The notes under the pieces: model-generated
What the model was told of the DNA's origin: nothing
Seen by the model: only the letters and a program-made list of their open reading frames with translations
Database searches by the model: none
Shown: piece by piece, positions 16,964 to 54,396 of the stretch
Numbering within the stretch: position 1 is the stretch's first letter
Layout: every line of letters begins with the position of its first letter
Translations under genes and position numbers: made by a program
Assembly: GCA_014376525.1 (NCBI GenBank)
Contig: JACMRI010000001.1
Coordinates: 3,871 to 67,870 of the forward strand
Length of the DNA stretch: 64,000 nt
From: Bacteroidia bacterium
GTDB lineage: Bacteria; Bacteroidota; Bacteroidia; UBA4408
Reading direction: 5' to 3'

Positions 16964-17707
16964 ATGCCCAAAACAAGTATATACACTTACCTATTTATGT
17001 TGCCTCGGGTAATATGGAAACTGTTTTTTATAATCAATTTTATAATAGGGCTTGTTGTGTTGTACCCCTTGTTTTATCTACTATTGCAAGGTAACGCTCC
17101 TTATACTAAAGCGTTTGCATTAATGCGATTTTGGGCCTGTTGGATACTTCATGTGCCAGGTATATTTGTACACACCAAAGGCAATGCTAACGTTGCTACT
17201 ACACCTTGTGTATTGGTTGCTAATCATGCTTCTTACCTTGATATTATTGTGAGTTACGTGGTGTTTAACTTTTATTTTGTGTTTGTGGGCAAAAGCGAAA
17301 TACGTAGTGCGCCATTATTTAATGTGTTTTTTAAACGTATGAATATATTGGTAGATAGGGGTAACGCATCATCGGGCGCTACTGCTTATAAGGCCTGTAG
17401 CGAGCGTTTGCAACGTGGCGAAAGTGTATTTTTATTTCCTGAAGGTGGTATTAGAGCTAATAGCGATATGCGTACGTTTAAAAATGGTGCGTTCCAATTA
17501 GCTATTGATAACCAAGTACCAATAGTACCTGTAACGTTTCGTAACAACTGGAAACTACTACAAACAGGGGCATTTTTTAAGTGCTACGGTACACCAGGTA
17601 TAGCGCAAGTAGTGGTGCATAATAGTGTACCTACTTTGGGCTTAACCAAAGAGTATGTTCCACAACTAAAAAAAACTGTTTTTGATGTTATAAAAAATGC
17701 ACTGTAA
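16964..17707 (+). CDS. 1-acyl-sn-glycerol-3-phosphate acyltransferase family protein (PlsC-like)
   Basis: N-terminal TM. HX4D motif NHASYLD and FPEGGIR motif (acyltransferase motifs I and III). The V-P-I-V-P-V motif IV region is present. Confidence 0.7.
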   Translation: MPKTSIYTYLFMLPRVIWKLFFIINFIIGLVVLYPLFYLLLQGNAPYTKAFALMRFWACWILHVPGIFVHTKGNANVATTPCVLVANHASYLDIIVSYVVFNFYFVFVGKSEIRSAPLFNVFFKRMNILVDRGNASSGATAYKACSERLQRGESVFLFPEGGIRANSDMRTFKNGAFQLAIDNQVPIVPVTFRNNWKLLQTGAFFKCYGTPGIAQVVVHNSVPTLGLTKEYVPQLKKTVFDVIKNAL

Positions 17708-17977
17708 TTGTAATTTTATAACATCAAAAACGCAATTTTAGCAACAACCCTATACACAACAATTTAGCAGTAGCCAAACAGCTGATGTATAATAAGTATA
17801 ATTTTAATTGCTCTAAAATTATAATAAAAAGTAAAGAATATGGCGCTACAACATTTAAACTAAATATATAGTACCAAATAGCTAAATTTATATTCATTAA
17901 AATTGAGCAATTTGTAACCTTTTGGAAACGCAGTAACAACGATATTAAACAACCATTTAAAGCAATTACATCATACT

Positions 17978-19414
17978 ATGATAACCACCATTACCAATTT
18001 TTGCAACTCCTATTTTAAAAACACAACAAGTATAGTACACGCATTAGCAGCGCAAGGTAGCGACCGTCAATACTACCGTGTAAGCAACAACAACGTTAAT
18101 TACATAGCGGTGTATAGCCCTGATGTAAAAGAGAATGAAGCGTTTATAAAATTCTCATTACATTTTATTAAAGCCAAAGTACCAGTGCCTACTGTATTGC
18201 ATTTTAACGAGGAGCGTACTATGTATTTGCAAAATGATTTTGGCAATACTTGCTTGTACGATGTGCTTAACAAACAAGGTTTCACTGATGAGATATATGA
18301 TCTTTATAAACAATCGTTAAAAGCACTAGCTAATATGCAAATACAAGGTGTGCAAGACTTTGATACTGCTTATTGCGTTGCGGCCAAAGAGTTTAATCGT
18401 ACAGGGTTCTATGCCGATTTATTATACTTTAATTATTACTTTGTTCGTCCTACTAAAACGCCTTATCATAAAACCGAATTACTTACCGATTTTGATACTT
18501 TGAGCGATTATTTAATGGGTGCTAATCGTTCATTTTTTATGCACCGCGATTTTCAAAGTCGTAATATAATGGTGGCAAATAATGCACCACACGTAATAGA
18601 TTATCAAGGGGGAATGTTAGGCGCATTGCAGTACGATGTGGCTTCGCTACTGTGGCAAGCTAAAGCGCAACTGCCATACGAATGGCGCAATAATTTATTT
18701 GATTATTACTACGAGCAAGCACAACTGCAAAGCACACAAGTGCAAGACAAACTTACATTTACCGACCATTACAACGCATTTGTATTATTGCGCTTGTTGC
18801 AAGTATTAGGCGCGTACGGATTTAGAGGTTTGTTTGAAGGTCGCCCACACTTTATAGATAGCATAGCACCTGCACTGGAAAACCTAAAATGGTTTGTAGC
18901 TAACAAACGTTTGCCTTTAAAATTAAATGCCTTATACGAAGTATTAAACCACATTACTCAACCCGAATTTATAGCACAATTTAAAATAGAAAAAGCCTTG
19001 GCTACAAGCAAACTAAAAGTAACCATAACCAGCTTTAGTTACAAGCGTGCTATACCTGCCGATGTGAGTGGAAACGGAGGTGGCTATGTGTTTGACTGCC
19101 GTGGTGTACATAACCCTGGTAGGTTTGAAGAGTATAAAAAACTCACTGGAAGAGATAAACCTGTAATTGACTTTTTGATGAACAAAACACTTATGCCGCA
19201 GTTTATAAAACACATACAAAACTTGGTGGACATAACGGTGCAAGATTATTTAAAACGAGATTTTGAAAACCTAATGCTTAATTTTGGTTGCACAGGCGGG
19301 CAGCACCGTAGCGTGTTTAGTGCTGATGCTCTGGCAACTTATTTGCGTGAGCGGTATAACTTAACTGTAACCGTAACACATACCGAGCAAGAACTAAAAG
19401 GTTGGATTAACTAA
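17978..19414 (+). CDS. Fusion protein: APH-family (AmgK-like anomeric amino-sugar) kinase N-terminal domain + RapZ C-terminal-like domain
   Basis: N-terminal ~330 aa carry DRQYYRV (nucleotide-binding lysine region) and the Brenner/catalytic motif MHRDFQSRNIMV plus VIDYQGG (DFG-equivalent) of the aminoglycoside/choline-kinase-like phosphotransferase fold. C-terminal ~140 aa carry SFSYKRAIPADVSGNGGGYVFDCRGVHNPGRF ... LTGRDKPVIDFL ... GCTGGQHRSVFSADALATYL, closely matching the conserved motifs of the RapZ (YvcJ/YhbJ) C-terminal domain. Confidence 0.65.
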   Translation: MITTITNFCNSYFKNTTSIVHALAAQGSDRQYYRVSNNNVNYIAVYSPDVKENEAFIKFSLHFIKAKVPVPTVLHFNEERTMYLQNDFGNTCLYDVLNKQGFTDEIYDLYKQSLKALANMQIQGVQDFDTAYCVAAKEFNRTGFYADLLYFNYYFVRPTKTPYHKTELLTDFDTLSDYLMGANRSFFMHRDFQSRNIMVANNAPHVIDYQGGMLGALQYDVASLLWQAKAQLPYEWRNNLFDYYYEQAQLQSTQVQDKLTFTDHYNAFVLLRLLQVLGAYGFRGLFEGRPHFIDSIAPALENLKWFVANKRLPLKLNALYEVLNHITQPEFIAQFKIEKALATSKLKVTITSFSYKRAIPADVSGNGGGYVFDCRGVHNPGRFEEYKKLTGRDKPVIDFLMNKTLMPQFIKHIQNLVDITVQDYLKRDFENLMLNFGCTGGQHRSVFSADALATYLRERYNLTVTVTHTEQELKGWIN

Positions 19415-19416
19415 GC

Positions 19417-20562
19417 GTGGCGGGCATATACATACATATACCGTACTGCAAACAAGCGTGCGTGTATTGCAATTTTCATTTTAGTACACAGCTTGCTACT
19501 ACACAATTAATGGTAGACAGTATAGTTACCGAACTGCAATTGCGCACCACTTATTTTGAGCCACACACTCCTATACACACCATTTATTTTGGAGGTGGTA
19601 CACCAAGTGTACTAACGGTTACACAACTTCAAACCATTATTATAGCCATACAAAAAAACTATAATTGTGCTGAGCTACAAGAGCTTACTATGGAAGCCAA
19701 CCCCGACGATTTATCGTTAGACTATTTACAACAACTAAAACAACATACCCCTGTAAACCGCTTGAGCATTGGCGTGCAGAGTTTTAATGATGATGAACTT
19801 GCATTTTTTAATAGAGCACATAACGCATCGCAAGTACATCAAGCTTTGCGCAATGCGCAGTTGGTAGGTTTTACTAACATTAGTATAGATTTAATATTTG
19901 GTTCGCCCGTAAGTACTACAGCATCGTGGTTACGCAATTTACAATTGGCTGATGAATACGGAGTGCAACATTTATCGTGCTACTCGCTTACGGTAGAAGA
20001 AAAAACGGCATTGGCACATCGTGTAAATTATACAAAGCAAGTAACGTTGAACGAAAGTTTGAATAACCAACAGTTCCAAACCCTTATGGACTATGCCTCG
20101 CAAAACAATTGGACGCAGTACGAAATATCCAATTATTGTAAGCAAGGGTTTGAATCTAAACACAACACGAGTTACTGGCAAGGCAAAACCTTTATGGGAG
20201 TAGGTCCTGCGGCACATTCATACAATGGGGCTACTCGCAGTTTTAATATACATAATAATAATTTGTATATAAAAGCAATGCATAATAATGACTTAAAAGC
20301 TAGCACAGACACCACCGAAATTCTTACCGAAAGTGAACAGTATAACGAATATGTAATGACACGCCTACGCACCCTACAAGGCATAAATAGCATAAAATTG
20401 CAACAACTATTTGGCACTGAAAAACTCACCTATTTTGAAACTGAAATAGCTTATGAAATACATAAGGGTAATATAAAGTATGAGTACTTTAACTACACAC
20501 TTACTTCTGCAGGTAAGTACATTGCCGATAGTGTAGCGAGTAATTTGTTTTGGGTGGAATAA
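19417..20562 (+). CDS. hemW: Radical SAM heme chaperone HemW (oxygen-independent coproporphyrinogen III oxidase-like)
   Basis: CxxxCxxC radical-SAM cluster motif near the N-terminus (IYIHIPYCKQACVYCNF). ~380 aa with the HemN_C-like tail typical of HemW. Confidence 0.8.
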   Translation: MAGIYIHIPYCKQACVYCNFHFSTQLATTQLMVDSIVTELQLRTTYFEPHTPIHTIYFGGGTPSVLTVTQLQTIIIAIQKNYNCAELQELTMEANPDDLSLDYLQQLKQHTPVNRLSIGVQSFNDDELAFFNRAHNASQVHQALRNAQLVGFTNISIDLIFGSPVSTTASWLRNLQLADEYGVQHLSCYSLTVEEKTALAHRVNYTKQVTLNESLNNQQFQTLMDYASQNNWTQYEISNYCKQGFESKHNTSYWQGKTFMGVGPAAHSYNGATRSFNIHNNNLYIKAMHNNDLKASTDTTEILTESEQYNEYVMTRLRTLQGINSIKLQQLFGTEKLTYFETEIAYEIHKGNIKYEYFNYTLTSAGKYIADSVASNLFWVE

Positions 20563-20764: not shown

Positions 20765-21847
20765 TTGCCAAACCTCATTTTACATAAAATAAAGCGTACA
20801 AATCAATACCTTATTAGTATTGGTCTTACTATTGGTGTAGCGGTGCTGTGCTACTTATTACCAGCAATTATTGGTTACAAAATTGTAGCACTTATATTGT
20901 TGGTAACTGTGTCGTTTATGGCTATGTTTTTTGATATTGCACCTGTATTGTGTGCATCAATATTGAGTGCTTTAATTTGGGATTATTTTTTTATTCCTCC
21001 TAAGTTTACTTTTTTTATAGCCAATACCGAAGACTTACTTATGTTTAGTATGTATTTTATTATAGCTATGGTAAATGCTATGCTAACATTTAAAATACGC
21101 GCTATAGAAAAAATAGCTACGCAAAAAGAAGGCGAAGAAAACACGCTTAAATTGTACAATACTTTACTCAATTCGTTATCGCACGAATTGCGTACCCCAA
21201 TTGCAACAATATTGGGCGCTACCGACAATTTACAAAGCAACAATAGTAACTTAACAATAACCAACAAAGCCGATTTGCTGGTAGAAATATCTACCGCTTC
21301 GCTTCGATTAAACAGACAGGTAGAAAATTTGTTAAATATGTCAAGGTTAGATTCGGGAGTTATACAACCTAACTTAGACTGGTGCGATATAAACGAGTTA
21401 ATACATGATACCGTAAATAGATTAAAAGAAAATTTGGCACAACGTATCGTAAACATTGAAATAGAAGATGCGTTGGCATTATGCAAACTTGATGTAGGAC
21501 TAATGGAGCAAGTACTTACTAATCTTATACTTAATGCTAACCTATATTGCCCTAAACACTGCATTATTACTGTAAAAGCTACGTTTAAAAATAATACTTT
21601 GATACTTGTAGTAGCAGATAATGGTAATGGTCTTGTTAATGAAGAAATACACAAAGTATTTGATAAATTTTATAGAGTAGCGCACACCAACACCAATGGT
21701 TCGGGTTTGGGTTTATCTATTGTAAAAGGTTTTGTGGAGGCACATAATGGTACGGTAAGTTTGCATAATTGTACAACAGGTGGTGCTGTGTTTACTATTG
21801 CTATTCCTACCGAAATAATGCACATAAATACTATTGAAAACGAATAG
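20765..21847 (+). CDS. KdpD-family sensor histidine kinase, membrane (DUF4118-like) + HisKA + HATPase module only
   Basis: 4-TM N-terminal region, H-box LSHELRTPIATILGATDNL, and N/G boxes LILNANLYCP ... ADNGNGL ... GSGLGLSIVKGFVEAHNG. The adjacent regulator is KdpE-like. The ORF begins with a TTG codon at 20765 and has no in-frame ATG until the membrane domain. The large N-terminal KdpD sensor/Usp domains are absent. Confidence 0.7.
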   Translation: MPNLILHKIKRTNQYLISIGLTIGVAVLCYLLPAIIGYKIVALILLVTVSFMAMFFDIAPVLCASILSALIWDYFFIPPKFTFFIANTEDLLMFSMYFIIAMVNAMLTFKIRAIEKIATQKEGEENTLKLYNTLLNSLSHELRTPIATILGATDNLQSNNSNLTITNKADLLVEISTASLRLNRQVENLLNMSRLDSGVIQPNLDWCDINELIHDTVNRLKENLAQRIVNIEIEDALALCKLDVGLMEQVLTNLILNANLYCPKHCIITVKATFKNNTLILVVADNGNGLVNEEIHKVFDKFYRVAHTNTNGSGLGLSIVKGFVEAHNGTVSLHNCTTGGAVFTIAIPTEIMHINTIENE

Positions 21848-21850
21848 CAA

Positions 21851-22528
21851 ATGAACAATGTAACTGTATTAATTATTGATGATGAAGCCCCAATTCGCAA
21901 GCTACTTACCATAACATTGGAAAGCAACGAATATAAGGTAAGCCAAGCTGCTACTGCACACGAAGGGCTTATGGCAGCTGCTAATCATCCTCCTCATATA
22001 ATTCTGTTAGACCTTGGTTTACCTGATGAGAGTGGACATGATTTACTTATAAAATTACGCCAATGGTACACCAATCCAATTATAATACTATCAGCACAAA
22101 GTACCGAACACGACATTGTAAAAGCATTAGATAATGGCGCAAATGATTACTTAGTAAAACCGTTTCGTACAGGCGAATTATTAGCACGTTTACGCTCTGT
22201 GGTTCGTACTAGTGTTAATAACGATGAAAGTCCAATTATAAACTGCAATGATTTGCAACTTAACTTTGGTACACGTACTGTAACCAAAAATAATATAGCA
22301 GTAAAACTAACTGCCACCGAATATAACTTACTAGCTTTACTCATAAAAAACGAAGGTAAAGTACTCACACACCATTATTTATTAAAACAAATATGGGGAC
22401 CAAGCTACTTGAGTCAATCGCAGTATTTGAGGGTGTTTATAGCACAATTACGCAAAAAAATAGAAGTTGATGCCAACAAACCTTTACACATTATTACTGA
22501 AAGTGGGGTAGGATATAGGTTTATATAA
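21851..22528 (+). CDS. kdpE: OmpR-family response regulator, KdpE-like
   Basis: Receiver domain with phospho-acceptor in ILLDLGLPDESG. KPF and winged-helix C-terminal (LTATEYNLLALLIKNEGKVLTH ... IITESGVGYRF). Strong overall similarity to E. coli KdpE (ILDLGLPDGDG, LSARS, DDYLSKPF). Confidence 0.8.
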   Translation: MNNVTVLIIDDEAPIRKLLTITLESNEYKVSQAATAHEGLMAAANHPPHIILLDLGLPDESGHDLLIKLRQWYTNPIIILSAQSTEHDIVKALDNGANDYLVKPFRTGELLARLRSVVRTSVNNDESPIINCNDLQLNFGTRTVTKNNIAVKLTATEYNLLALLIKNEGKVLTHHYLLKQIWGPSYLSQSQYLRVFIAQLRKKIEVDANKPLHIITESGVGYRFI

Positions 22529-32331: not shown

Positions 32332-32943
32332 ATGATAACAGTAATTAATTATGGTGTTGGCAACTTGGGTTCGGTAATGAATATGTTTAAAAAAATAAAC
32401 GTAGAAGCCCAACTATCCACAAGTATTGACGATATTAAAAATGCAAAAAAACTGTTGTTACCTGGTATTGGTTCATTTGATATTGCAATGCAAAAGTTAA
32501 TTTCAACAGGATATTTACCTTATTTAAACCAAAAGGTAATGGAAGAAAAGGTACCTACATTGGGTATTTGTCTTGGTATGCAACTTATGACTAATGGAAG
32601 CGAAGAGGGAACACACAAGGGCCTAGGTTGGTTTGATGCAGAAACCGTAAAGTTTAATTTAGACACAAACATATATAAAATACCTCACATGGGTTGGAAC
32701 GATGTGTTTTTGAAACAAGCTAACAATACACTTACCGCCAATTTGCCTGTAGAGCCTCGTTTTTATTTTTGCCATAGTTACTTTGTTAAGTGTAAGAATG
32801 ATAACGAACAAATGCTAACGTGCAACTATGGCAATGAATTTACTTGCGGAATAAATAATGAAAACATATACGGTGTACAGTTTCACCCCGAAAAAAGCCA
32901 CAAATATGGTATGCAATTACTCAAAAACTTTTCAACGCTATAA
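32332..32943 (+). CDS. HisH-like glutamine amidotransferase subunit (WbuY-like, polysaccharide-cluster paralogue)
   Basis: Class-I GATase triad: GICLGMQ (Cys nucleophile) and HPEKS (His). N-terminal MITVINYGVGNLGSV. It is followed directly by a HisF-like gene and polysaccharide genes, not by other his genes. Confidence 0.8.
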   Translation: MITVINYGVGNLGSVMNMFKKINVEAQLSTSIDDIKNAKKLLLPGIGSFDIAMQKLISTGYLPYLNQKVMEEKVPTLGICLGMQLMTNGSEEGTHKGLGWFDAETVKFNLDTNIYKIPHMGWNDVFLKQANNTLTANLPVEPRFYFCHSYFVKCKNDNEQMLTCNYGNEFTCGINNENIYGVQFHPEKSHKYGMQLLKNFSTL

Positions 32944-32946
32944 ACA

Positions 32947-33711
32947 ATGAGAAGAATACGAGTAATACCCGCCTTATTAATTAAAGATGGCGGATTGTAT
33001 AAAGGCCAGCGTTTTAAAGATTTTAAATATGTGGGCGACCCCATAAACGCCATAAAAATATTTAACGATAAAGAAGTAGATGAGCTATGTGTGTTTGACA
33101 TAAGTGCTACCACAGCTAACAAAGCTCCTGACTATAAACTTATACAAGAGTTTGCTGGAGAATGTTTTATGCCTTGTTGCTATGGTGGAGGAATTAATAA
33201 ATTGGAACACGCACAACGTATATTTGAATTGGGTATAGAGAAAGTATCCATAAGCAGTGGTGCATTTAGTAACCCACAGCTCATAGGACAAATAGCCAAT
33301 CAATACGGAGCGTCTAGCACTGTTGTTACTATTGATTACAAAAAAAAAATATTTGGCAAAACTACTGTATATACGCATCAGGGTAGTTACAATACAAAAC
33401 TAACAGTACTAGAATGGGCTAAAACTGTTGAAAACGCTGGTGCAGGCGAAATTATATTAAATAGTATTGATAAAGATGGGTTGATGACAGGCTACGACTT
33501 AGACATGATACACGCGGTGAGTAATAGCGTAACCATACCTGTTATAGCATTAGGAGGCTGTGGTACAATAAGCGATATGGCTAAAGCCGTGGAGCAGGGT
33601 GCTAGTGCAGTAGCAGCAGGTAGCACATTTGTGTTTCATGGAAAGTTAAAAGGCGTACTTATAAATTTCCCTACACAAGACGAATTAAAGAAAGAATTAT
33701 ATATTCCATAA
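32947..33711 (+). CDS. HisF-like cyclase subunit (WbuZ-like glycosyl-amidation-associated protein)
   Basis: TIM-barrel HisF pattern RVIPALLIKDGGLYKG ... CYGGGI ... ILNSIDKDGLMTGYD ... IALGGCG. Confidence 0.8.
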   Translation: MRRIRVIPALLIKDGGLYKGQRFKDFKYVGDPINAIKIFNDKEVDELCVFDISATTANKAPDYKLIQEFAGECFMPCCYGGGINKLEHAQRIFELGIEKVSISSGAFSNPQLIGQIANQYGASSTVVTIDYKKKIFGKTTVYTHQGSYNTKLTVLEWAKTVENAGAGEIILNSIDKDGLMTGYDLDMIHAVSNSVTIPVIALGGCGTISDMAKAVEQGASAVAAGSTFVFHGKLKGVLINFPTQDELKKELYIP

Positions 33712-33718
33712 AAAAATA

Positions 33719-34984
33719 ATGATAAATAAAACTTTACTAAAATTCAAAAAACATACGTTATTTATACTTTATTTATTAATGATAATAGGAATTTGCTTTG
33801 GTGTATATAACTCTAGTGGCTTAGTTCATATTCAAAAAATAATTAGCTATTTAGTTGCATTAGTCTTAATATATATATTGGTAAATAAATATATTATTGA
33901 TAAAAATAGGAACGTTGATATAACATTTATGAATAATAGTAACAATGATGTACTGCTAAATATAGTAATAGGAGTATCACTACTTACTTGCATATTTCAC
34001 TTACTTTATCTGGGTTATATTCCTGTTTGGGAAACCTATAAATCTTTATATGGAATAGAAATTTCATTTATTAGAGAAGATGTTTTATCTAAATTAAACA
34101 CTACATTAAACTATCTAGTTGCATTTAATTTAAATGCTACAATTCCATTTATATTTTATCAAACGTTTAAGCGCAAAAAACGATATTTTGTTATTTTATA
34201 CATTATATTATTTTTTTATTTATTAAATGTATTACAAAAAAGTTATTTGCTATTTGCCATACTTCCATTGGCAATTCTTATGTTTAACCAAAAGTATTAC
34301 AAATTGGGTATTGCTACCATTGTATTGTCTACATTATCTATCTTTTTTATAATATGGCTATCTAACCCACAACTAAGAGCAAGTAGTACTGAAATAGATT
34401 TATATGCAAAAAAATATATTTCAAAAAACATTCATGCAAATACAGTTTTAGCGCCACAGGCAATACTTCCCAAAAGCTCAGTGTCTTCTCAAAATGTTGT
34501 ACTAAGTATATTTATTGGTTTTTATAATAGAATAGCTCTAGTACCTGGGCATGTTGTTAGTAAATGGTTTGATTATATACCCCAAAAATTACCTTATACA
34601 CATGGTTATAATATTAGGCCAATTGCATTAATTAGTGGAAAAAATTATCAAGATTATAATTACTCGAGAATGATTTATGATTTAGAATTTCCTGAAGACG
34701 CCAAAAACGGTTTAAAAGGAACTGCAAATGTTGCTCATTTTATGAATGATTACGCTAGTTTTGGTTTTTGGGGCTTATTTTTTTCAGCCCTGCAAGTAGT
34801 TATTATAATTCAACTTCTGCAACATATATTTAAAAATAATATAAGTGATTTAATATCATTTAACTTAAATTTTATGCTTGCGCTATCCTCTACTGCACTT
34901 ACCACAACTTTATTTTCAGGAGGATGGGCTTTAATGATTGTTTATTATTTTCTTTTTAATCACAAAAATGAAATTACTGATTAA
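33719..34984 (+). CDS. Polytopic membrane protein, putative polysaccharide (O-unit) polymerase Wzy/EpsG-like
   Basis: ~10 predicted TM helices. Very AT-rich. No catalytic motifs. It sits between hisF-like and wzx-like genes in a glycan cluster. Confidence 0.4.
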   Translation: MINKTLLKFKKHTLFILYLLMIIGICFGVYNSSGLVHIQKIISYLVALVLIYILVNKYIIDKNRNVDITFMNNSNNDVLLNIVIGVSLLTCIFHLLYLGYIPVWETYKSLYGIEISFIREDVLSKLNTTLNYLVAFNLNATIPFIFYQTFKRKKRYFVILYIILFFYLLNVLQKSYLLFAILPLAILMFNQKYYKLGIATIVLSTLSIFFIIWLSNPQLRASSTEIDLYAKKYISKNIHANTVLAPQAILPKSSVSSQNVVLSIFIGFYNRIALVPGHVVSKWFDYIPQKLPYTHGYNIRPIALISGKNYQDYNYSRMIYDLEFPEDAKNGLKGTANVAHFMNDYASFGFWGLFFSALQVVIIIQLLQHIFKNNISDLISFNLNFMLALSSTALTTTLFSGGWALMIVYYFLFNHKNEITD

Positions 34985-36227
34985 TAAAATAGCAACAAAT
35001 AATTTTTATGTTTTAACAATAGGAACAATTGCATCTCAATTTTTAGTACTTGCTACATTTTTTGCAATTGTTAAATTTAACATATACACACCAAAAGAGG
35101 TTGGAATACTAAATATAGTATTAAACAGTGTTGGTATACTGGCAGTATTGTTTAGTTTAAGATACGAGTCAGCTATTGCAAAATCAAATACTGAGGAAGA
35201 GGCCGAGCAAGTTTTTTGGATGTGTATTTGGTGGAATTTTGTTTTTTTATTTTTATTTAGTTCTTGTTTTTATTTTATTCCAACAGCAGCTATATACAAT
35301 CTTGGATTATCAAATCTAGGTGTTTATGTGTATTTAATCCCTTTATATACATTTGTATTAACCATAAATCAATTACTAATTTTAAAAATAAATAGAGATG
35401 GGAATTATAAATTAAACGCAGTTTCCAAAGTTTTAAATTCGTTATTGTTTATAATTATACTTATAGTAGCAACTTGTTTTTTTAAAAATTATTTTAGCGT
35501 ACTTAATGCGCAATTTTTTTCGTTATTAGTTGTAACACTTCTACTTTTATATAAGAATAAAAATCTTTTTAGAACTCATTTTGATGTACATACTTTTAAA
35601 TCGCTGAGCAAAAAATATATTTATTTACCAAAATATTTTTTAGTATCATCATTGTTTGATAAGCTAAGTGTGAATATGCCTTTGTTATTTATTAATAAAA
35701 TATTTGACGTATCTGTTGCTGGTTATTTTGGTTTTAGCGAGCGTATTTTAAGCAGTCCTTCAGGCGTAATTAGTTCTTCTATTTCTCAAATTTTATATCA
35801 AGATGTTTGCAAGAGAATTAATATTCAACAAGAACATTTTAGTATTTTTGCATCAAATCTTCGCAAGTTATTTTTGATGGGCATTTTGCCATTTTCAATA
35901 CTTATTATAGGCGGAGATTATCTTGCCAAAACATTATTAAGCGAGGAGTGGCAGGGAGTTGGCATATATTTACAATGTATAGCGGCTATACAATTTATAC
36001 GTTTTATGGTATCTCCGTTAAGTGTTATATTGCTTGCAAATAAAGAAACTAAAATACTTGCGATATGGCAAACAAGCTATTTTATTAGTGTTAGTGTTAT
36101 TATTGGTGTATCTTACTGGTACAAAAACATAAAACTATTTTTAATTTTACTTGTTATTATTGAATTTGTGCTGTATAGCATCTATCTTTACTTAATATAT
36201 AAATCAGCAAAAAAATCATTATTATAA
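34968..36227 (+). CDS. Polysaccharide flippase (Wzx / MOP superfamily)
   Basis: ~12 TM helices. Start placed at MKLLINKIATNNFYVLTIGTIASQFLVLATFF (ORF-track 34938 overlaps the upstream gene). The N-terminus is typical of polysaccharide biosynthesis protein / Wzx. Confidence 0.6.
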   Translation: MKLLINKIATNNFYVLTIGTIASQFLVLATFFAIVKFNIYTPKEVGILNIVLNSVGILAVLFSLRYESAIAKSNTEEEAEQVFWMCIWWNFVFLFLFSSCFYFIPTAAIYNLGLSNLGVYVYLIPLYTFVLTINQLLILKINRDGNYKLNAVSKVLNSLLFIIILIVATCFFKNYFSVLNAQFFSLLVVTLLLLYKNKNLFRTHFDVHTFKSLSKKYIYLPKYFLVSSLFDKLSVNMPLLFINKIFDVSVAGYFGFSERILSSPSGVISSSISQILYQDVCKRINIQQEHFSIFASNLRKLFLMGILPFSILIIGGDYLAKTLLSEEWQGVGIYLQCIAAIQFIRFMVSPLSVILLANKETKILAIWQTSYFISVSVIIGVSYWYKNIKLFLILLVIIEFVLYSIYLYLIYKSAKKSLL

Positions 36228-36230
36228 ATT

Positions 36231-38024
36231 ATGTGCGGCATATCTTTATTAGTTAACAAAACATTATCTAACGCTCACTTTGATGACATTCATACTATGA
36301 ATGAAACCATATTACATCGTGGTCCTGATGCTGGAAATACCTATGTGTATAACAATGTAGCACTAGGACATAGAAGACTTGCAATAATAGATTTGTCTGT
36401 TGATGGAGAACAACCAATGCATTGGAAGGATAAGTACACAATTATATTTAATGGCGAAATTTATAATTACATTGAAATAAAAAATGATTTGGAAAGTAAA
36501 GGATATATATTCTCTACCAAAACAGATACTGAAGTTATACTTGCTGCTTATGATTGTTATAAAGAAGACTGTTTAAACTATTTTAATGGCATGTGGGCAT
36601 TTGTTATAATAGATAAACAATCTAATAGTTTGTTTGGAGCTAGAGACCGTTTTGGTGTAAAACCCTTTCATTACTGCATTATCGACAAATACTTTGCCTG
36701 CTCGTCAGAAATTAAGCAACTTTTAACAATAGTACCTGCTGTTGCTAACGAACAAATTGTGGTTGATTTTTTGTCGCACGGAATAGTTGAACACAAAGAG
36801 GAAACGTTTTTTAAATCTATTTTTAAATTATTGCCCAGTACCTACTTTGTGTACAATTTAACAAGTAATAAAATCACATTCAAAAAATATTATGAAATTT
36901 TATTACGTAATGAAATATTAAATTACTCTTTGGAGGAAAGTATTAATGTTTATGAAAAAACTTTAGAAAGTGCAATAAAACTTAGAATGCGCTCTGATGT
37001 TAAAGTAGGTACCTGCTTAAGCGGAGGGCTTGATAGTTCTACTATTGCTGCAATAGCGTCTAAAATGTCAAACGGTAAATTTACAGCCATAACAGCATCG
37101 TCTACAGATAAACGAAATGACGAAACCAATTTTGCTAAAGAAGTAGTACAACATTGTAATTTAGATTGGAAAACAATATGCCCAACTACCACTGTTTTTT
37201 TTAATAATATTGCCGAAATTATTAAAACTCAAGAAGAACCTTTTGCATCTACGTCAATATTTATGCAATATTTTGTAATGAAAAGCGCAAAAGAAAATGG
37301 CTGTACTGTGTTGTTAGACGGTCAGGGAGGAGATGAAACGTTATTTGGATATGAACGTTATTACGCCTCATTATTTAAACATTTAAGTTTTATAGATAAG
37401 ATAAAGACCTTTAGAGCTGCAACTAAAAATTCAAAACTAACAGCTAAAACACTTGTAGCTTACCTGTTTTATTTTAATAATTTTTTTATTAGAAAATTGT
37501 TTTTAAAAAAAAGAAGTGCGTTTTTAAAACCAAATTATATAAATAAAATAGATTTTTCGATAATTAAAGATGCTATTAAATCTAACAATAATGTAGTTAA
37601 TTTACAAATATTAGAAATTACCAAAACAACAATGCCTCAATTGTTAAAATACGAAGACCGTAATTCAATGCGTCATTCTATAGAAACTCGCTTACCATTT
37701 ATTGATTATAATTGTGTTGAAGTTGCGCTATCCATAAACAATAATTACAAAATATATAATGGCTGGACTAAATATATTTTGCGCAACATTACACAAAAAC
37801 ATTTACCAAGCAGTATTGCATGGCGCAAAAATAAGGTTGGATTTGAGTCGCCTCAAGACGAATGGCTTAAAAATAAAAATTATTTTTTACCATTAATAAA
37901 ATCTTCATTACTATTAAAAAAAATAACAAAAACTGACTTTGATTTTGAAACTATTAGTGATAACAATCTATTTTGGAAATTATATTGTGTAGCCGCTTGG
38001 GAAAAAGAATTTATTTTAAAATAA
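36231..38024 (+). CDS. Asparagine synthase (glutamine-hydrolysing) family amidotransferase (AsnB-like)
   Basis: N-terminal Ntn nucleophile MCGISLLV. HRGPDAGN, LAIIDLS and the PP-loop SGGLDSSTIAAIA of the synthetase domain are present. Confidence 0.8.
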   Translation: MCGISLLVNKTLSNAHFDDIHTMNETILHRGPDAGNTYVYNNVALGHRRLAIIDLSVDGEQPMHWKDKYTIIFNGEIYNYIEIKNDLESKGYIFSTKTDTEVILAAYDCYKEDCLNYFNGMWAFVIIDKQSNSLFGARDRFGVKPFHYCIIDKYFACSSEIKQLLTIVPAVANEQIVVDFLSHGIVEHKEETFFKSIFKLLPSTYFVYNLTSNKITFKKYYEILLRNEILNYSLEESINVYEKTLESAIKLRMRSDVKVGTCLSGGLDSSTIAAIASKMSNGKFTAITASSTDKRNDETNFAKEVVQHCNLDWKTICPTTTVFFNNIAEIIKTQEEPFASTSIFMQYFVMKSAKENGCTVLLDGQGGDETLFGYERYYASLFKHLSFIDKIKTFRAATKNSKLTAKTLVAYLFYFNNFFIRKLFLKKRSAFLKPNYINKIDFSIIKDAIKSNNNVVNLQILEITKTTMPQLLKYEDRNSMRHSIETRLPFIDYNCVEVALSINNNYKIYNGWTKYILRNITQKHLPSSIAWRKNKVGFESPQDEWLKNKNYFLPLIKSSLLLKKITKTDFDFETISDNNLFWKLYCVAAWEKEFILK

Positions 38025-38041
38025 TAGTTAGGCACTAAATT

Positions 38042-39169
38042 ATGAACTTACATATATATCCTTCTGTTTTTAAAAACGAATCTCGCATACTTAAAGAAAC
38101 CAAAAGTTGTATTGATTTAGGCATAACTAATACGGTTGTGGTATGCGCGTTACACACTAATGGAGTAAACGAAAACGACATTATAGACAACAACAGAAGT
38201 GTAAAACGTTTAAAAATACCATTTGGAAATGCAATAGGAGGCAAGCAAGCAATGTTTAAACTATTTTTCTTTAATATATATACTATCAAATATGGCTTAA
38301 AAATTAAGCCACAACTTATTAATTGCCATAGTTTAACAGTACTAGTAAGTGGGGTTGTACTAAAATTATTTACTGGTGCAAAACTAGTTTACGACACACA
38401 TGAATTAGAAACCGAAAAAGCAGGAATGGGTAATGTAAGACGTATTATTGCTAAGTTGTGGGAACGAGTTTTAATTCAATTTGTAAATGGAGTTATAACT
38501 GTAAGTCCGTCAATTAACGATTGGTATATTAAAACGTATAAACTCAATAATTGCGTGTGCGTGCGAAACATTCCTTACCAACAAATTAATGCACCATCAA
38601 AAAATAGTATTTTAAGAGATGAATTTAAAATAGAAAGTGATGCTATCATTTATATTTATCAAGGATTATTTTCGAGAGGTAGGGGTATAGAGCTTATGCT
38701 TTCTACTTTTGAAAAACTCCCCATAAACAACCATCTTATACTTATGGGTTATGGACCATTAGAGGTACTTATACAAAAATATACCGCACAATTTCCAAAC
38801 ATACATTTTAAAGCAGCTGTTGCACCAGCAGATATTATAAAATATACGTCAAGCTGTGATGTAGGAATAGTGCTTATTGAAAACATTTCGTTGAGTTATT
38901 ATTATAGTTTGGCTAATAAGGTGTTTGAATATATGCTATCGGGTCTTCCTATTATAACAAGCAATTTTCCTGATATGCAAAATTTGGTAACCACATACAA
39001 TTGTGGGTGGAGCATAGAACCAAGTATTGAACAACTAAAAAAAATTATTTTACAGTTAACTACTCAAGAAATAGAAAATAAAAAAAATAATTTAAGCACA
39101 ATTAATAAAAATTTGTGTTGGGAAAAGGAAGAGTGTAAATTGCAACAATTTTATAAACAATTAGTTTAA
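38042..39169 (+). CDS. Glycosyltransferase family 4 (GT-B, GT1 superfamily)
   Basis: C-terminal E-x7-E region EYMLSGLPIITSNFPDMQNLV. GT-B two-domain size (375 aa). Confidence 0.7.
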   Translation: MNLHIYPSVFKNESRILKETKSCIDLGITNTVVVCALHTNGVNENDIIDNNRSVKRLKIPFGNAIGGKQAMFKLFFFNIYTIKYGLKIKPQLINCHSLTVLVSGVVLKLFTGAKLVYDTHELETEKAGMGNVRRIIAKLWERVLIQFVNGVITVSPSINDWYIKTYKLNNCVCVRNIPYQQINAPSKNSILRDEFKIESDAIIYIYQGLFSRGRGIELMLSTFEKLPINNHLILMGYGPLEVLIQKYTAQFPNIHFKAAVAPADIIKYTSSCDVGIVLIENISLSYYYSLANKVFEYMLSGLPIITSNFPDMQNLVTTYNCGWSIEPSIEQLKKIILQLTTQEIENKKNNLSTINKNLCWEKEECKLQQFYKQLV

Positions 39170-39196
39170 TTTTAAACAGAAAATAAAACGTTACAC

Positions 39197-40324
39197 ATGA
39201 ATTTAAATTATAAAATATGCACACGTTGTATAATGGATACAACCGATAGCAACATTACTTTTAGTACTCTTGGCGTATGTAACCATTGCTTAAATTATGA
39301 CGAACAAAAAAAGTTAAGAGTTTGGGATGGCACACAAGCAAAAATAGAATTAGAAAAAATAGTAAATAAAATAAAAAAAACAGGCTTAAATAATACCTAC
39401 GATTGTATAATAGGAGTTAGCGGAGGAGTTGATAGCACTTATGTTGCATATGTAGTTAAGCAACTTGGATTACGCCCACTTGCTATACATTTTGATAACA
39501 ATTGGAATTCTGAACTTGCAGTAAGTAATATTGAAAAAACATTAACAACACTAGATATAGACCTGTATACTTACGTTATTGATTGGCCTGAATTTAAAGA
39601 TTTACAACTATCTTTTCTTAAAGCTTCAACTCCTGATGGAGAAGTACCAAGCGACCACGCAATAAATGCCCTACTATACAAGGAAGCTAATAAGAGAGGG
39701 ATTAAGTATATAATAAATGGAATGAATTATGCATCAGAATCTATTGCCGTGCACTCGTGGGCGTATGGGCATACAGATTGGAAATATATTAATGGAGTTC
39801 AAAAAAAATTGGGCTCTTTAAATTTAAAAAATTACCCACACTTTAATTTTTTACAATTATTTTATTGGACATTTATTAAAAAAATTAAATCAGTAGCAAT
39901 ACTAAATTTTATAGACTATAATAAAGAAGCTGCAATGGATGTTTTACAAAAAAAATTAAATTGGAAATATTACGGTGGCAAGCATTACGAGTCTATATAT
40001 ACGCGTTTTTATCAAGGATACATTTTACCTAAAAAATTTAATATTGATAAACGTAGAGCGCACTTATCTGGCTTAATTCTATCGGGGCAAGCAACCCGCG
40101 ACCAAAGTTTAATTGATATTAAAACTAATCCGTTAGATTTAAATGTAGAAAAAACAGACAAGGACTTTGTTATGAAAAAGTTAAATTATTCAGAAGTTGA
40201 ATTTAACACAATGATGAACGCTCCATTAAAAACATTTAACGATTACCCAAACAATCACAATCTAGTAATGCGTATTAAAAACATTGTTAATTTAATGCGT
40301 AAAAATGGACTTTATTCAAAGTAA
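39197..40324 (+). CDS. N-acetyl sugar amidotransferase (WbuX/LfnA-like PP-loop ATP pyrophosphatase)
   Basis: N-terminal Cys pairs CTRCIMDTTDSNI ... CNHCLNY (zinc ribbon). PP-loop GVSGGVDSTYVAYVV. The layout matches the LPS-biosynthesis N-acetyl sugar amidotransferase family that partners HisH/HisF paralogues. Confidence 0.7.
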   Translation: MNLNYKICTRCIMDTTDSNITFSTLGVCNHCLNYDEQKKLRVWDGTQAKIELEKIVNKIKKTGLNNTYDCIIGVSGGVDSTYVAYVVKQLGLRPLAIHFDNNWNSELAVSNIEKTLTTLDIDLYTYVIDWPEFKDLQLSFLKASTPDGEVPSDHAINALLYKEANKRGIKYIINGMNYASESIAVHSWAYGHTDWKYINGVQKKLGSLNLKNYPHFNFLQLFYWTFIKKIKSVAILNFIDYNKEAAMDVLQKKLNWKYYGGKHYESIYTRFYQGYILPKKFNIDKRRAHLSGLILSGQATRDQSLIDIKTNPLDLNVEKTDKDFVMKKLNYSEVEFNTMMNAPLKTFNDYPNNHNLVMRIKNIVNLMRKNGLYSK

Positions 40325-40330
40325 ATATTA

Positions 40331-40903
40331 ATGATAAATAAAATTACACCACTAACGCTAACCGCAGTAGCTAAAGTGCACAAAGAGGTTTACTTAAAAA
40401 ATCATTTTTCTAGTTTAATGTCACCTCAAAAAACAGAAGAGTTTTACAGCTATCAAATAGCGCACAACGAGCACTGCTATAGTTACACCTTCAACAACGA
40501 AATTGTAGCATTTATTATTTCAGGAAAAAACACCAATAAAGCAGTTAATTCATTTATTATGAATAATAAACTTTATTTATTATTTGTAACCATTAGTAAT
40601 CCTCGCTTTTTATTACAAAAAGCGAAACAATTTATAAGCGTATTATTGAGCAATAATAAAGAGAAATTTGAAATACAGCCATTTAGATTACTTAGTGTAG
40701 CAGCCTCTTCAAAGGTGCAAGGCAAAGGTGTTGTGGTGCGTTTTTTTAACGAATATCATAGCGTTTTAAAAACACATGGTATTAATAGTTATGGCTTATC
40801 TGTTAAATCGGACAATACTCGCGCTATAAAACTATACGAAAAATTAGGTTTTGAAATTGAACATATTGAAAAAACCTCAATATATTATAAAATAACTTTA
40901 TAA
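40331..40903 (+). CDS. GNAT-family N-acetyltransferase
   Basis: C-terminal GNAT motif LSVKSDNTRAIKLYEKLGFEI. Acetyl-CoA binding region VQGKGVVVRFFNE. Confidence 0.5.
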   Translation: MINKITPLTLTAVAKVHKEVYLKNHFSSLMSPQKTEEFYSYQIAHNEHCYSYTFNNEIVAFIISGKNTNKAVNSFIMNNKLYLLFVTISNPRFLLQKAKQFISVLLSNNKEKFEIQPFRLLSVAASSKVQGKGVVVRFFNEYHSVLKTHGINSYGLSVKSDNTRAIKLYEKLGFEIEHIEKTSIYYKITL

Positions 40904-40924
40904 CCTCACTTAAGAAACAACACT

Positions 40925-41557
40925 ATGAACCCTAAAAAAATACTTGTACTTGCACCACATACTGATGATGGTGAATTTGGCTGTGGTGGAACTATTAACA
41001 AACTTATAAGTGAGGGTAACGAAGTATACCTTGCTGCTTTTTCGGCTTGCCAGCAATCTGTACTACCACAATTTCCTTCAGATATATTGATAACAGAAGT
41101 AAAAGCAGCTACCATAAAATTAGGTATAAAACCCGAAAACTTAATATTGTTTAATTATGATGTACGCACATTTAACTATCGCAGGCAAGATATACTGGAC
41201 GATTTAATAAAATTACGCGCAAAAATAAAACCCGATATGGTATTTATACCATCACTCAACGATATACACCAAGACCATAAAACAATAGCCGAAGAAGGAT
41301 TGCGTGCATTTAAATTTAGTACCATACTATGCTACGAAATGCCTTGGAACAATATTACGTTTACCACCTCATCGTTTTTTATATTAACTGAAGCCAACGT
41401 GCAGGCAAAAGTAAATGCTTTAGGCGAATACAAATCGCAAGCACATCGCCCCTACGCTAACGAACGTTTTATACGCTCACTTGCCAATACACGTGGCGTA
41501 CAAATAGATCAAGAATACGCTGAAGCATTTGAAGTATTGCGCTGGATTAATAATTAA
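40925..41557 (+). CDS. PIG-L/LmbE-family N-deacetylase
   Basis: ILVLAPHTDDGEFGCGGTI and a downstream HQDH motif are hallmarks of the PIG-L zinc-dependent de-N-acetylase family. Confidence 0.75.
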   Translation: MNPKKILVLAPHTDDGEFGCGGTINKLISEGNEVYLAAFSACQQSVLPQFPSDILITEVKAATIKLGIKPENLILFNYDVRTFNYRRQDILDDLIKLRAKIKPDMVFIPSLNDIHQDHKTIAEEGLRAFKFSTILCYEMPWNNITFTTSSFFILTEANVQAKVNALGEYKSQAHRPYANERFIRSLANTRGVQIDQEYAEAFEVLRWINN

Positions 41558-41571
41558 ACAAATTTAAAAAA

Positions 41572-42483: not shown

Positions 42484-42486
42484 CCA

Positions 42487-43503: not shown

Positions 43504-43517
43504 CAAACCAACAACAT

Positions 43518-54390: not shown

Positions 54391-54396
54391 ACTGTT

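Follow-up and report, generated by a model that had tools for sequence, protein, structure and literature searches.

An AmgK-like kinase joined to a RapZ-type C-terminal domain in a large Bacteroidota family points to an unstudied step of amino-sugar recycling

Two groups of described proteins come close to the protein analyzed here. The first is AmgK, the N-acetylmuramate/N-acetylglucosamine 1-kinase, an APH-fold enzyme known with its partner MurU from Pseudomonas putida, Legionella, Caulobacter and Tannerella. The AmgK/MurU route is present and working in Tannerella, a member of the Bacteroidia (PMC7670621, PMC13046382, PMC8054146), and in the anabolic recycling of Pseudomonas the step directly before AmgK is carried out by MupP, a HAD-family MurNAc-6-P phosphatase (PMC8054146, PMC13041923). 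The second group comprises the E. coli RNase adaptor RapZ and its Gram-positive and actinobacterial homologs YvcJ and Rv1421. As the earlier note on this DNA had stated, in agreement with the literature, RapZ carries a P-loop kinase-like N-terminal domain and a PFK-like C-terminal domain (CTD) that binds GlcN6P and the sRNA GlmZ (PMC5737377, PMC9841335). The pocket of this CTD takes sulfate, malonate or RNA phosphate (PMC5737377, PMC9841335), and its metabolite-sensing role in E. coli has been experimentally shown. A Cys residue of RapZ is essential (PMC9841335, PMC7199280), and the likeness of the pocket to a Cys-x5-Arg loop has already been published (PMC7199280). Enterobacterial RapZ ends in a basic tail, for which the consensus RxRxKNxQxRHRTxxKRK is quoted in PMC7525490. 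RapZ and YvcJ are functionally tied to amino-sugar nucleotide supply, and yvcJ adjoins the gene of a GlcNAc-1-P uridyltransferase, GlmR (PMC10128056, PMC7525490). In the searchable literature, we found no paper that treats RapZ and AmgK together and none that ties the RapZ CTD to phosphotransferases of Bacteroidetes.

The window, that is, the whole 64-kb stretch of DNA analyzed here, contains an ORF at 17978..19414 on the forward strand, to which all features described below also belong. The ORF (ATG start, 478 aa plus stop) is present just as the earlier note gave it and encodes an AmgK-like kinase followed by a RapZ-type CTD, an architecture referred to below as K-C. Its start codon is sound, because homologs align over 100% of the protein length. 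Both domains match far beyond chance: the Pfam model PF01636 (APH) covers aa 23-244 (E 3e-12, 47.2 bits against a cut-off of 23.2), and PF22740 (RapZ C-terminal domain) covers aa 346-471 (E 1.8e-32, 112.5 bits against a cut-off of 27). A PDB sequence search with the protein returned RapZ at E 2e-14 (CTD only) and 3csv at E 2.5e-9, and an AF2 model of the full-length protein reached a pLDDT of 92.1 and a pTM of 0.85. The earlier note had proposed a kinase fold at the N-terminus and a RapZ-CTD at the C-terminus, and had named failure of either assignment as what would speak against it. Neither failure was found: the N-domain matches APH in Pfam and has 3csv as its top Foldseek match, while the C-domain matches PF22740 and accounts for the match to the RapZ model of NCBIfam, which covers the C-terminal half of that model only. 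Moreover, the motifs it had quoted (HRDFQSRN, DYQGG, YVFDCR...NPGR and GCTGGQHRS) all lie at the expected places.

The N-terminal kinase domain (aa 1-335; 17978..18982) has the APH/eukaryotic-like-kinase fold and is AmgK-like according to Pfam APH, the NCBIfam AmgK model NF045759 and Foldseek. Its best Foldseek match (3csv, E 4.9e-13) itself scores as AmgK-type, and the further matches include APH enzymes and, at rank 17, the choline kinase LicA. In the N-lobe, the motif GSDRQYYR (aa 27-34; 18056..18079) is the counterpart of SSRRYQR in 3csv, with G27, R30 and Y32 invariant in the family and R34 conserved in at least 90%; E52, in the helix at 50-65, is likewise invariant. The catalytic (Brenner) loop HRDFQSRN (aa 189-196; 18542..18565) contains the invariant D191 and N196, and the metal-binding motif DYQGG (aa 208-212; 18599..18613), equivalent to DFG, contains the invariant D208, Q210, G211 and G212. 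The feature required of AmgK, an HxDxxxxN catalytic loop together with a metal-binding Asp on an APH fold, is therefore present, and the catalytic motifs are the same as those of the characterized enzymes. The alignment to NF045759 runs end to end (aa 8-323 against profile positions 10-319 of 324). It scores 68.1 bits against a cut-off of 550, the second AmgK model, NF045698, gives 28.5 bits against a cut-off of 500, and all other kinase models remain at or below 17 bits. By these comparisons, the window kinase is related to AmgK but is no equivalog of it, and the domain is predicted to be an APH-fold kinase with an intact catalytic site and AmgK as its nearest family. The characterized AmgK proteins consist of one domain (about 38 kDa in the case of Legionella; PMC11957156), whereas the window protein adds a 140-aa RapZ-type domain.

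This RapZ-type CTD (aa 346-471; 19013..19390, from PF22740) has the PFK-like fold and shares with RapZ, YvcJ and Rv1421 the pocket loop C-T-G-G-x-H-R-S, the FDxR, NP and TGxDKPV motifs and the dimerization strand, and conservation across the family places it under stronger constraint than the kinase domain. The segment YVFDCR (aa 370-375; 19085..19102) corresponds to the dimerization strand YVFD(179-182) plus R184 of E. coli RapZ (PMC5737377), and F372, D373 and R375 are invariant in the family. GCTGGQHRS (aa 437-445; 19286..19312), a predicted strand-loop-helix phosphate-binding loop with a Cys-x5-Arg-Ser signature, is equivalent to C247-S254 of E. coli RapZ and includes its pocket residues T248, G249, H252 and R253 as well as the essential C247. 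The whole motif is invariant (C438, G440, G441, H443, R444 and S445 of the pocket among its residues) except for T439, which is Thr in 46 of 48 sequences and Ser in the other two. Hence the Cys, Thr, Gly, His and Arg of the E. coli pocket are all kept: the Thr as either Thr or Ser, the other four without variation. In the AF2 model, C438, R444 and S445 are placed around a strand (431-438) and a helix (444-460). NPGR (aa 379-382; 19112..19123), the counterpart of NPHW in RapZ, is invariant as well, as is a TGRDKPV-type loop that is common to E. coli RapZ at an overall identity of only about 35%. Within NPGR, the invariant Gly381 stands where RapZ has its pocket residue H190, and the invariant Arg382 lies next to it. 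Because of this exchange and that of K251 to Gln, the ligand specificity need not be for GlcN6P.

Further examination of the RapZ residues that contact RNA revealed extensive change: K194 has become Glu, R211 Gln or Asn, R238 Phe and K251 Gln, so that four of the seven surface basic contacts are gone. The C-terminal tail RERYNLTVTVTHTEQELKGWIN (19346..19411), in which only H468 is invariant, reads THTEQELKGWIN and is without the basic RHRTxxKRK tail with which enterobacterial RapZ binds RNA. Judged from its sequence, the C-domain is a true RapZ-CTD whose predicted Cys-x5-Arg-Ser phosphate pocket and dimerization strand are intact and whose RNA-binding surface is largely lost. Since most of the RNA-contact residues are lost, RNA binding of the RapZ type is unlikely. 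The protein could be a true RapZ, an RNA-binding adaptor handing sRNA to RNase E/G, as the homology of the CTD and the NCBI name "RNase adapter RapZ" of three relatives (P0023, P0091 and P0103) would have it, and L082 and L001 do have an RNase E/G gene close to the locus. However, these are just 2 among about 85 loci, and the proximity was treated as coincidence; Pfam detects no P-loop (Walker A/B) domain in the window protein, whose N-domain is an APH-fold kinase instead; and the NCBIfam RapZ model NF003828 is matched over profile positions 156-277 only (101.9 bits against a cut-off of 244). In addition, an Rfam gathering scan of the 64-kb window gave a single tRNA and neither a glmS ribozyme nor GlmY/GlmZ, and RNA binding is not known even for YvcJ of B. 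subtilis (PMC7525490). We regard an adaptor function as exceedingly improbable, and we judge the name "RNase adapter RapZ" to be wrong for K-C proteins.

The K-C architecture occurs throughout the Bacteroidota, and the genomes of more than 600 species contain relatives. It is thus not rare but marks a very large family, which stands in databases under generic or wrong names; the JGI family name, for example, is the generic "aminoglycoside/choline kinase family". A gene for a MurU-like sugar-1-phosphate uridylyltransferase follows immediately on the same strand in 57 of 77 related loci, mostly at a distance of less than 100 nt or overlapping; the pairing in Aridibaculum is an independent example annotated by Pfam. 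About one quarter of the loci have no MurU-like gene nearby, and an LpxL-type lipid A acyltransferase is the neighbor instead in 10 of the 77. The partner carries PF00483 (NTP_transferase fold), which sets it apart from the CofD-like GlmR encoded beside yvcJ. Its top NCBIfam match is MurU (NF045761) with 120-137 bits against a cut-off of 250, followed by the next family with 66-78 bits, and on these scores it is MurU-like but no equivalog. Besides neighboring genes, fusions were also found. Many Bacteroidales have kinase–CTD–nucleotidyltransferase (K-C-T) single chains, which make up five of the top 150 clusters at 50% identity and about 109 of the 120 best matches to one such query (P0223), on contigs of up to 310 kb; the few with a named source come from Muribaculaceae and Bacteroidaceae MAGs. 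A further layout, K + C-T, as at L082, is split; here the window protein shares 39% identity with the kinase and 56% with the CTD. The family therefore has three layouts (K-C + T, K + C-T and K-C-T), in which the gene boundaries shift and the order of kinase, CTD and MurU-like nucleotidyltransferase is the same throughout. "Domain swap", the term used in the earlier note, is fair wording for the window protein, but a three-module kinase/CTD/nucleotidyltransferase unit is the better picture. The link to amino-sugar-phosphate metabolism that it had suggested is strengthened by the MurU-like neighbors and by the Bacteroidales fusions.

The window locus and its closest relative, L001, have no adjoining MurU-like gene, unlike most of the family and unlike the AmgK/MurU systems. 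In both, the slot after the K-C gene is taken by a HemW-type radical-SAM gene (in the window at 19417..20562 with a GTG start; TIGR00539, 265.8 bits), which begins 2 nt past the K-C stop codon and is probably co-transcribed with the K-C gene. A tblastn search with 60 cluster-1 proteins and an HMM search against six-frame ORFs both failed to find a MurU-like gene in the 64-kb window, and Pfam and NCBIfam scans of about 40 of its large ORFs detected no MurU, GlmS, GlmU or canonical RapZ. The check proposed in the earlier note, for a MurU-like gene and glmS/GlmZ-type RNA, thus came out negative within the window. A GlmM-like mutase gene about 38 kb and an Amidase_3 gene about 9 kb from the K-C gene were noted, neither of them linked to it. 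Scanning for promoters and terminators around the K-C gene was uninformative, the sigma-70 consensus being unsuited to Bacteroidota.

With AmgK at 68 of 550 bits and MurU at 120-137 of 250, the substrate may differ from MurNAc or GlcNAc. These scores far below the equivalog cut-offs, along with the generic JGI name, the presence of LicA among the Foldseek matches and the LpxL-type neighbor in 10 loci, would suit a kinase/nucleotidyltransferase pair that acts on something else, for instance another hexosamine, a choline-type head group like that handled by LicA/LicC, or a neutral sugar. The link to MurNAc/GlcNAc recycling would then be wrong whatever the CTD does. Nevertheless, no other kinase model comes near that of AmgK (68 against at most 17 bits), which aligns end to end, no other nucleotidyltransferase model comes near that of MurU (120-137 against at most 78 bits), the nearest solved structure is AmgK-type, and the known ligands of the RapZ family are all amino-sugar derivatives (PMC9841335, PMC7525490). 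A different substrate class is accordingly improbable in our view, and assignment to a salvage pathway of the AmgK/MurU type is likely.

The best explanation of the whole, which we put forward tentatively, is that the protein is the kinase component of a three-module anabolic amino-sugar salvage system, specific to Bacteroidota, in which the CTD serves as a sensor. The kinase would act on MurNAc, GlcNAc or a closely similar amino sugar and phosphorylate its anomeric hydroxyl, and the MurU-like partner would turn the resulting sugar-1-phosphate into a UDP-sugar for cell-envelope synthesis. The CTD would dimerize the enzyme, and its pocket would hold a phosphorylated amino sugar from the class of GlcN6P, MurNAc-6P and UDP-sugars; through this ligand, the flux of salvage may be adjusted to the pool of precursors made de novo. 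Metabolites would be sensed as by the CTD of E. coli RapZ, with the signal wired to an enzyme rather than to sRNA decay. That the pocket binds a ligand is likely, and that its role is specifically that of a non-catalytic sensor or gate is somewhat short of probable. The CTD could also be a structural module only, either for dimerization or as a scaffold joining kinase and nucleotidyltransferase, and have a pocket without ligand function. The kept YVFD strand, the constant position of the CTD between K and T with attachment to either, and the fixed inter-domain packing suggested by the pTM of 0.85 are compatible with such a module, but it would have no need for the invariant Cys-x5-Arg-Ser loop, NPGR and the TGRDKPV-type loop, nor for being the more conserved half of the protein, and we hold it to be very improbable.

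The same loop brings in another possibility within the same pathway, namely that the CTD is a Cys-dependent phosphatase acting on MurNAc-6-P, GlcNAc-6-P or GlcN-6-P. It would then be a functional analogue of MupP, freeing the sugar for renewed phosphorylation, now at C1, by the fused kinase, and K-C-T chains would run 6-P removal, 1-phosphorylation and uridylylation in succession. An invariant Cys, and a Ser after the Arg, exceed the needs of a pure binding site and favor this catalytic reading over the sensor reading. The full C-x5-R-(S/T) loop between strand and helix found in PTP, DUSP and PTP-like inositol phosphatases is present family-wide, with Cys, Arg and Ser invariant. Khan and Gorke likened the RapZ pocket to the loop of Cys-dependent PTPs and proposed GlcN6P hydrolysis (PMC7199280); the C247S exchange kills E. 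coli RapZ, and its CTD soaked with GlcN6P shows a "chemically transformed product" (PMC9841335). Phosphatase activity is reported for B. subtilis YvcJ, as quoted in PMC7525490. MupP acts directly before AmgK, and fusion of consecutive enzymes is frequent. On the other hand, the PFK and P-loop kinase folds score equal to or higher than the phosphatases for the CTD, no WPD-type general acid could be assigned in it, and Pfam models do not place the window protein in a Cys-dependent phosphatase family. The parallel with MupP would be one of function only, since an Asp-based HAD enzyme and a putative Cys-x5-Arg loop are unrelated in fold and chemistry. Moreover, sugar-phosphate phosphatase activity of the RapZ family was not found in the searchable literature, a 2026 review included. 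We consider a phosphatase function of the CTD rather unlikely, and sensing remains the reading that we prefer.

A broader and doubtful extension is that the RapZ-CTD was ancestrally an enzyme or an obligate ligand module of UDP-amino-sugar synthesis and not an RNA-binding domain. In Bacteroidota, the CTD would then be a Cys-x5-Arg amino-sugar 6-phosphate phosphatase, analogous to MupP, in a three-step line from 6-P through free sugar and 1-P to UDP-sugar, often on one polypeptide. Firmicutes and Actinobacteria would repeat this logic with components that are not homologous: there, a RapZ-CTD joined to a kinase-type domain precedes a sugar-1-P uridylyltransferase (YvcJ, then GlmR). If this is true, canonical RapZ and YvcJ would be enzymes as well, with a substrate that has escaped notice, and presenting sRNA would be a role acquired late, in Enterobacteria.

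Proteins of the RapZ/YvcJ type occur widely and influence the supply of cell-envelope precursors as well as antibiotic tolerance and virulence. The Bacteroidota proteins set the RapZ domain, with its pocket intact and its RNA surface largely lost, within a defined two-enzyme pathway, and its frequent covalent joining to both enzymes makes for a simple RNA-free system in which to ask about ligand and chemistry. Meanwhile, the misnaming of K-C proteins as "RNase adapter RapZ" spreads through databases. Muribaculaceae and Bacteroidaceae, where K-C-T chains occur, are prominent in animal guts. The finding also bears on fosfomycin bypass and on metabolic labelling with MurNAc-based tools, which rely on AmgK/MurU. 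The trio of kinase, RapZ-CTD and uridylyltransferase, variously split or fused in Bacteroidota, suggests a regulatory or enzymatic step of amino-sugar recycling that has gone unstudied, and peptidoglycan-sugar salvage in this phylum gains with it a third component, likewise unstudied.

The ORF at 17978-19414 (+) encodes a protein of 478 aa, which the earlier note had described, from the sequence alone, as an APH/AmgK-type domain fused to a RapZ C-terminal-like domain. The ORF and every motif named there were found in place, and both domain assignments were borne out by the Pfam database, in which an APH phosphotransferase domain was detected at aa 23-244 (47.2 bits vs a cut-off of 23.2) and the RapZ C-terminal domain (CTD, PF22740) at aa 346-471 (112.5 bits vs a cut-off of 27). 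The start codon is sound because homologs identified by protein search align over the entire protein. Among NCBIfam models, the Pseudomonas-type AmgK profile was aligned end to end (aa 8-323 to profile positions 10-319 of 324) with a score of 68 bits vs a cut-off of 550, and the RapZ profile was matched by its C-terminal half alone (positions 156-277, 102 bits vs 244). Matches among PDB sequences were E. coli RapZ for the CTD (E 2e-14) and 3csv for the N-domain (E 2.5e-9).

AlphaFold2, given 48 family members, produced a confident model (pLDDT 92.1, pTM 0.85). The model's top Foldseek match in PDB was 3csv (E 4.9e-13), and next came APH-fold kinases that act on small molecules (corramycin phosphotransferase, PsiK, APH(4), APH(2''), MTR kinase and LicA), in agreement with a kinase fold for the N-domain. 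Neither outcome that the earlier note had named as refuting it, a CTD without matches to RapZ-CTD models or an N-domain without a kinase fold, was observed. The rebuilt part of the 3csv sequence scored 252 bits on NF045698 and 122 bits on NF045759, both of which are NCBIfam AmgK models; therefore, the nearest solved structure is AmgK-type. Residue conservation was taken from a 48-sequence alignment whose members are ~50% identical to the window protein. Invariant catalytic residues include D191 and N196 of HRDFQSRN, D208, Q210, G211 and G212 of DYQGG, E52 within helix 50-65 (taken to be the C-helix), and G27, R30 and Y32 of an N-lobe motif common to 3csv and the family. The window protein falls outside AmgK on equivalog score and outside RapZ on the P-loop domain and RNA surface; it nonetheless has the fold and most key sites of both.

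The protein search returned at least 8000 scored candidates, and both domains were present in all 120 matches listed. When a single genome was scanned for each GTDB species, at least 600 loci were confirmed, 80 of which were kept for neighbourhood analysis. Nearly all of these 80 are labelled Bacteroidota (Chitinophagaceae, Sphingobacteriales, Cytophagales-type families and Bacteroidia) and one is labelled Williamsia; the closest among them is L001, a Bacteroidia MAG locus (87% identity). The window itself has the look of ordinary Bacteroidota chromosomal DNA, with 33-38% GC, OMP genes and a gene for a T9SS CHU_C protein. Its GC skew jumps to +0.28 at 54001-56000, over an ORF (54397-57462) whose 1021-aa product combines a bacterial Ig domain with a CHU_C type IX secretion signal domain. 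Database names for the relatives disagree ('phosphotransferase', 'aminoglycoside/choline kinase family phosphotransferase', 'RapZ C-terminal domain-containing protein' and 'RNase adapter RapZ'). Three APH+RapZ-CTD proteins (P0023, P0091 and P0103) are called 'RNase adapter RapZ' in NCBI records, which looks like over-propagated annotation since neither the P-loop domain nor most of the RNA-contact residues are present in them.

A CTD-only profile was searched against 1.84 billion representatives, resulting in 4558 matches at E <= 1e-3, 2232 at E <= 1e-10 and 346 at E <= 1e-30. The architecture of the best 150 matches was set by local HMMs for the AmgK-like kinase (K), the CTD (C) and a MurU-like nucleotidyltransferase (T). 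The K-C type, to which the window protein belongs, accounted for 101 proteins and 12 truncated ones, and five K-C-T (714-768 aa) and three C-T (~372-387 aa) fusions were also identified, together with short CTD-only entries that are likely mostly fragments and one protein with HEAT repeats and the CTD (P0216, 570 aa). One of the proteins classed as K-C by the local HMMs, P0173, has an additional N-terminal 3'-5' exonuclease domain in Pfam; this Paludibacteraceae form (P0173/P0283, DNA_pol_A_exo1 + APH + RapZ-CTD) is exactly 718 aa long on several contigs of up to 38 kb. Pfam places APH, PapZ_C and NTP_transferase within a single chain, and MurU is the best NCBIfam model for the T part of the fusions. 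The name that JGI gives to K-C-T and C-T proteins, 'GTP:adenosylcobinamide-phosphate guanylyltransferase', is doubtful as well. The triple fusion itself is abundant: ~109 of the best 120 matches to P0223, a Muribaculaceae K-C-T protein, have this architecture, some of the matched clusters contain hundreds of member sequences, and the contigs reach 310 kb. The few named matches come from Muribaculaceae and Bacteroidaceae MAGs. In two loci (L082 and L083), a 335-aa kinase gene is followed after 54 nt by a 387-aa CTD-NTase gene; compared with the window protein, the kinase shows 39% identity to aa 23-309 and the CTD 56% to aa 337-471, with FDCR, NPG and CTGGQHRS intact. The order of K, C and T stays constant while gene boundaries move, which reads as the signature of one functional unit.

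For the genomic neighbourhoods, ORFs were called in the 80 loci and the window, and neighbouring genes were clustered. No conservation was observed upstream of the K-C gene. Directly downstream on the same strand, one protein cluster, a nucleotidyltransferase of ~244 aa, was found in 57 of 77 loci (and at +2 in two others), and thus forms a conserved third partner. The distance to the K-C gene starts at -53 and extends to a few hundred nt, with most gaps under 100 nt. MurU is the top NCBIfam model for this cluster (120-137 bits vs a cut-off of 250; 66-78 bits for the next family); in the cultured Aridibaculum genome, precomputed Pfam labels also give APH+PapZ_C and then NTP_transferase. An LpxL-type lipid A lauroyl acyltransferase takes the +1 position instead in 10 of the 77 loci (L018, L030, L031, L034, L039, L048, L050, L062, L065 and L079), often with a large (~880 aa) protein upstream. 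UDP-GlcNAc is the source of lipid A too, so this adjacency may not be accidental. Proximity of the kinase to an RNase E/G-family gene is intriguing, given that RapZ serves RNase E as an adaptor, but it was seen in only two of ~85 loci (L082, 6-1322; L001, 14804-16351(-)) and not in the window.

We propose that the kinase would convert an amino sugar to its alpha-1-phosphate, from which the MurU-like enzyme would make the UDP-sugar. This route would be the Bacteroidota form of an anabolic recycling pathway described in Pseudomonas, Legionella, Caulobacter and Tannerella, in which MurNAc-6-P is turned into UDP-MurNAc by way of MurNAc and MurNAc-1-P (PMC8054146, PMC13041923, PMC13046382, PMC7670621). 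The pair probably serves amino-sugar salvage; the exact sugar is uncertain because both enzymes score well under the equivalog cut-offs.

Within the 64-kb window, a search for the MurU-like uridylyltransferase and glmS/glmZ-like elements, which the earlier note had suggested looking for, came back empty: no MurU-like ORF was found, nor any glmS, GlmZ or GlmY RNA. In both the window and L001, the gene after the K-C gene is not MurU-like and encodes a HemW-type radical-SAM protein (TIGR00539, 266 bits). Its GTG start lies only 2 nt past the kinase TAA (TAAGCGTG, 19412-19419), which suggests co-transcription or translational coupling of the two genes in these lineages. Upstream, a perfect 16-nt inverted repeat (TTTTGATGTTATAAAA / TTTTATAACATCAAAA, 17680-17729) with an 18-nt loop, which includes the stop codon (17705-17707) of the preceding acyltransferase gene, is a possible terminator-like hairpin between the acyltransferase and kinase genes; it was not reported by a simple terminator scan. 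Further downstream are a KdpD-like histidine kinase and an OmpR-type response regulator (20765-22528), the former short (360 aa; DUF4118, HisKA and HATPase), with a TTG start and without the sensor N-domain; after these come an unknown 193-aa protein and an OmpL-like porin. Genes for envelope polysaccharides form a long run on one strand (32332-44753), which looks like an O-antigen/capsule locus with modified amino sugars; it encodes a HisH/HisF-like amidotransferase/cyclase pair, a flippase, an asparagine-synthase-like enzyme, GT4, GNAT, a PIG-L deacetylase, an LpxD-like N-acyltransferase (195 bits, slightly below its cut-off), GT2 and an O-antigen-ligase-like protein. Apart from the kinase gene, a single gene of an amino-sugar-nucleotide pathway was seen in the window, a phosphohexomutase gene at 57572-58969 (-), ~38 kb from the kinase (archaeal-type GlmM as best model, 313 bits vs a cut-off of 439).

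The CTD is a working part rather than a relic, since conservation is higher there than in the kinase domain (68% vs 58% mean pairwise identity; 29% vs 21% of positions invariant). In E. coli RapZ, the pocket is defined by H190, T248, G249, H252 and R253, and the essential C247 lies close to it (PMC5737377, PMC9841335). In the K-C family, C438, G440, G441, H443, R444 and S445 are invariant and position 439 is T or S, and the position of H190 is occupied by invariant Gly381, followed by invariant Arg382. The RapZ dimerisation strand YVFD (179-182) recurs at 370-373. A purely scaffolding CTD would leave this invariant pocket unexplained and is improbable. We consider a role of the K-C protein as an RNA adaptor even harder to credit, as it is contradicted by the missing P-loop domain and the lost RNA surface: four of the seven basic residues that track the GlmZ backbone in RapZ are replaced (K194 by E, R211 by Q/N, R238 by F and K251 by an invariant Gln), and the basic C-terminal tail, by the consensus quoted in PMC7525490, is absent.

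Two readings of the pocket compete. The CTD would bind a phosphate ester in the conserved loop, and by analogy with RapZ it may, tentatively, be a metabolite sensor whose output is the activity or assembly of the salvage enzymes. Sensing is the best-precedented reading; GlcN6P is bound by the E. coli RapZ-CTD and alters RapZ action (PMC9841335). A catalytic, phosphatase-like CTD is the somewhat less likely rival, and several lines of evidence speak for it. The loop carries the full Cys-x5-Arg-Ser signature, set on a strand-loop-helix; a resemblance between the pocket of RapZ and a PTP phosphatase loop was noted by Khan & Gorke, who proposed GlcN6P hydrolysis (PMC7199280); C247S inactivates RapZ and GlcN6P soaked into its CTD appears chemically transformed (PMC9841335), and phosphatase activity has been reported for YvcJ (as quoted in PMC7525490). 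In the known pathway, moreover, AmgK is immediately preceded by a phosphatase, MupP.

A parallel arrangement occurs in Firmicutes and Actinobacteria, where yvcJ adjoins glmR, the second gene of a conserved three-gene operon (PMC7525490). Accessory GlcNAc-1-P uridyltransferase activity has been demonstrated for GlmR (PMC10128056), and Rv1421, the homolog in mycobacteria, binds UDP-GlcNAc through its N-domain (PMC11229554). Both systems combine a kinase-type domain and a RapZ-CTD with a subsequent sugar-1-P uridylyltransferase, whereas neither the kinase domains nor the transferases are homologous. That this set occurs twice supports the inference that the original job of the RapZ-CTD may have been in UDP-amino-sugar synthesis. 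The K-C sequences and their Pfam architecture can already be found in public databases, the comparison of the RapZ pocket with a PTP loop has been published, and AmgK/MurU homologs in Bacteroides have been mentioned in the literature. In the literature searched, whose coverage is incomplete, we found no paper treating RapZ and AmgK together or describing the kinase/RapZ-CTD fusion or the K-C-T unit. The K-C family offers a clean system for learning what the RapZ-CTD pocket does and would come as a moderate surprise to specialists.
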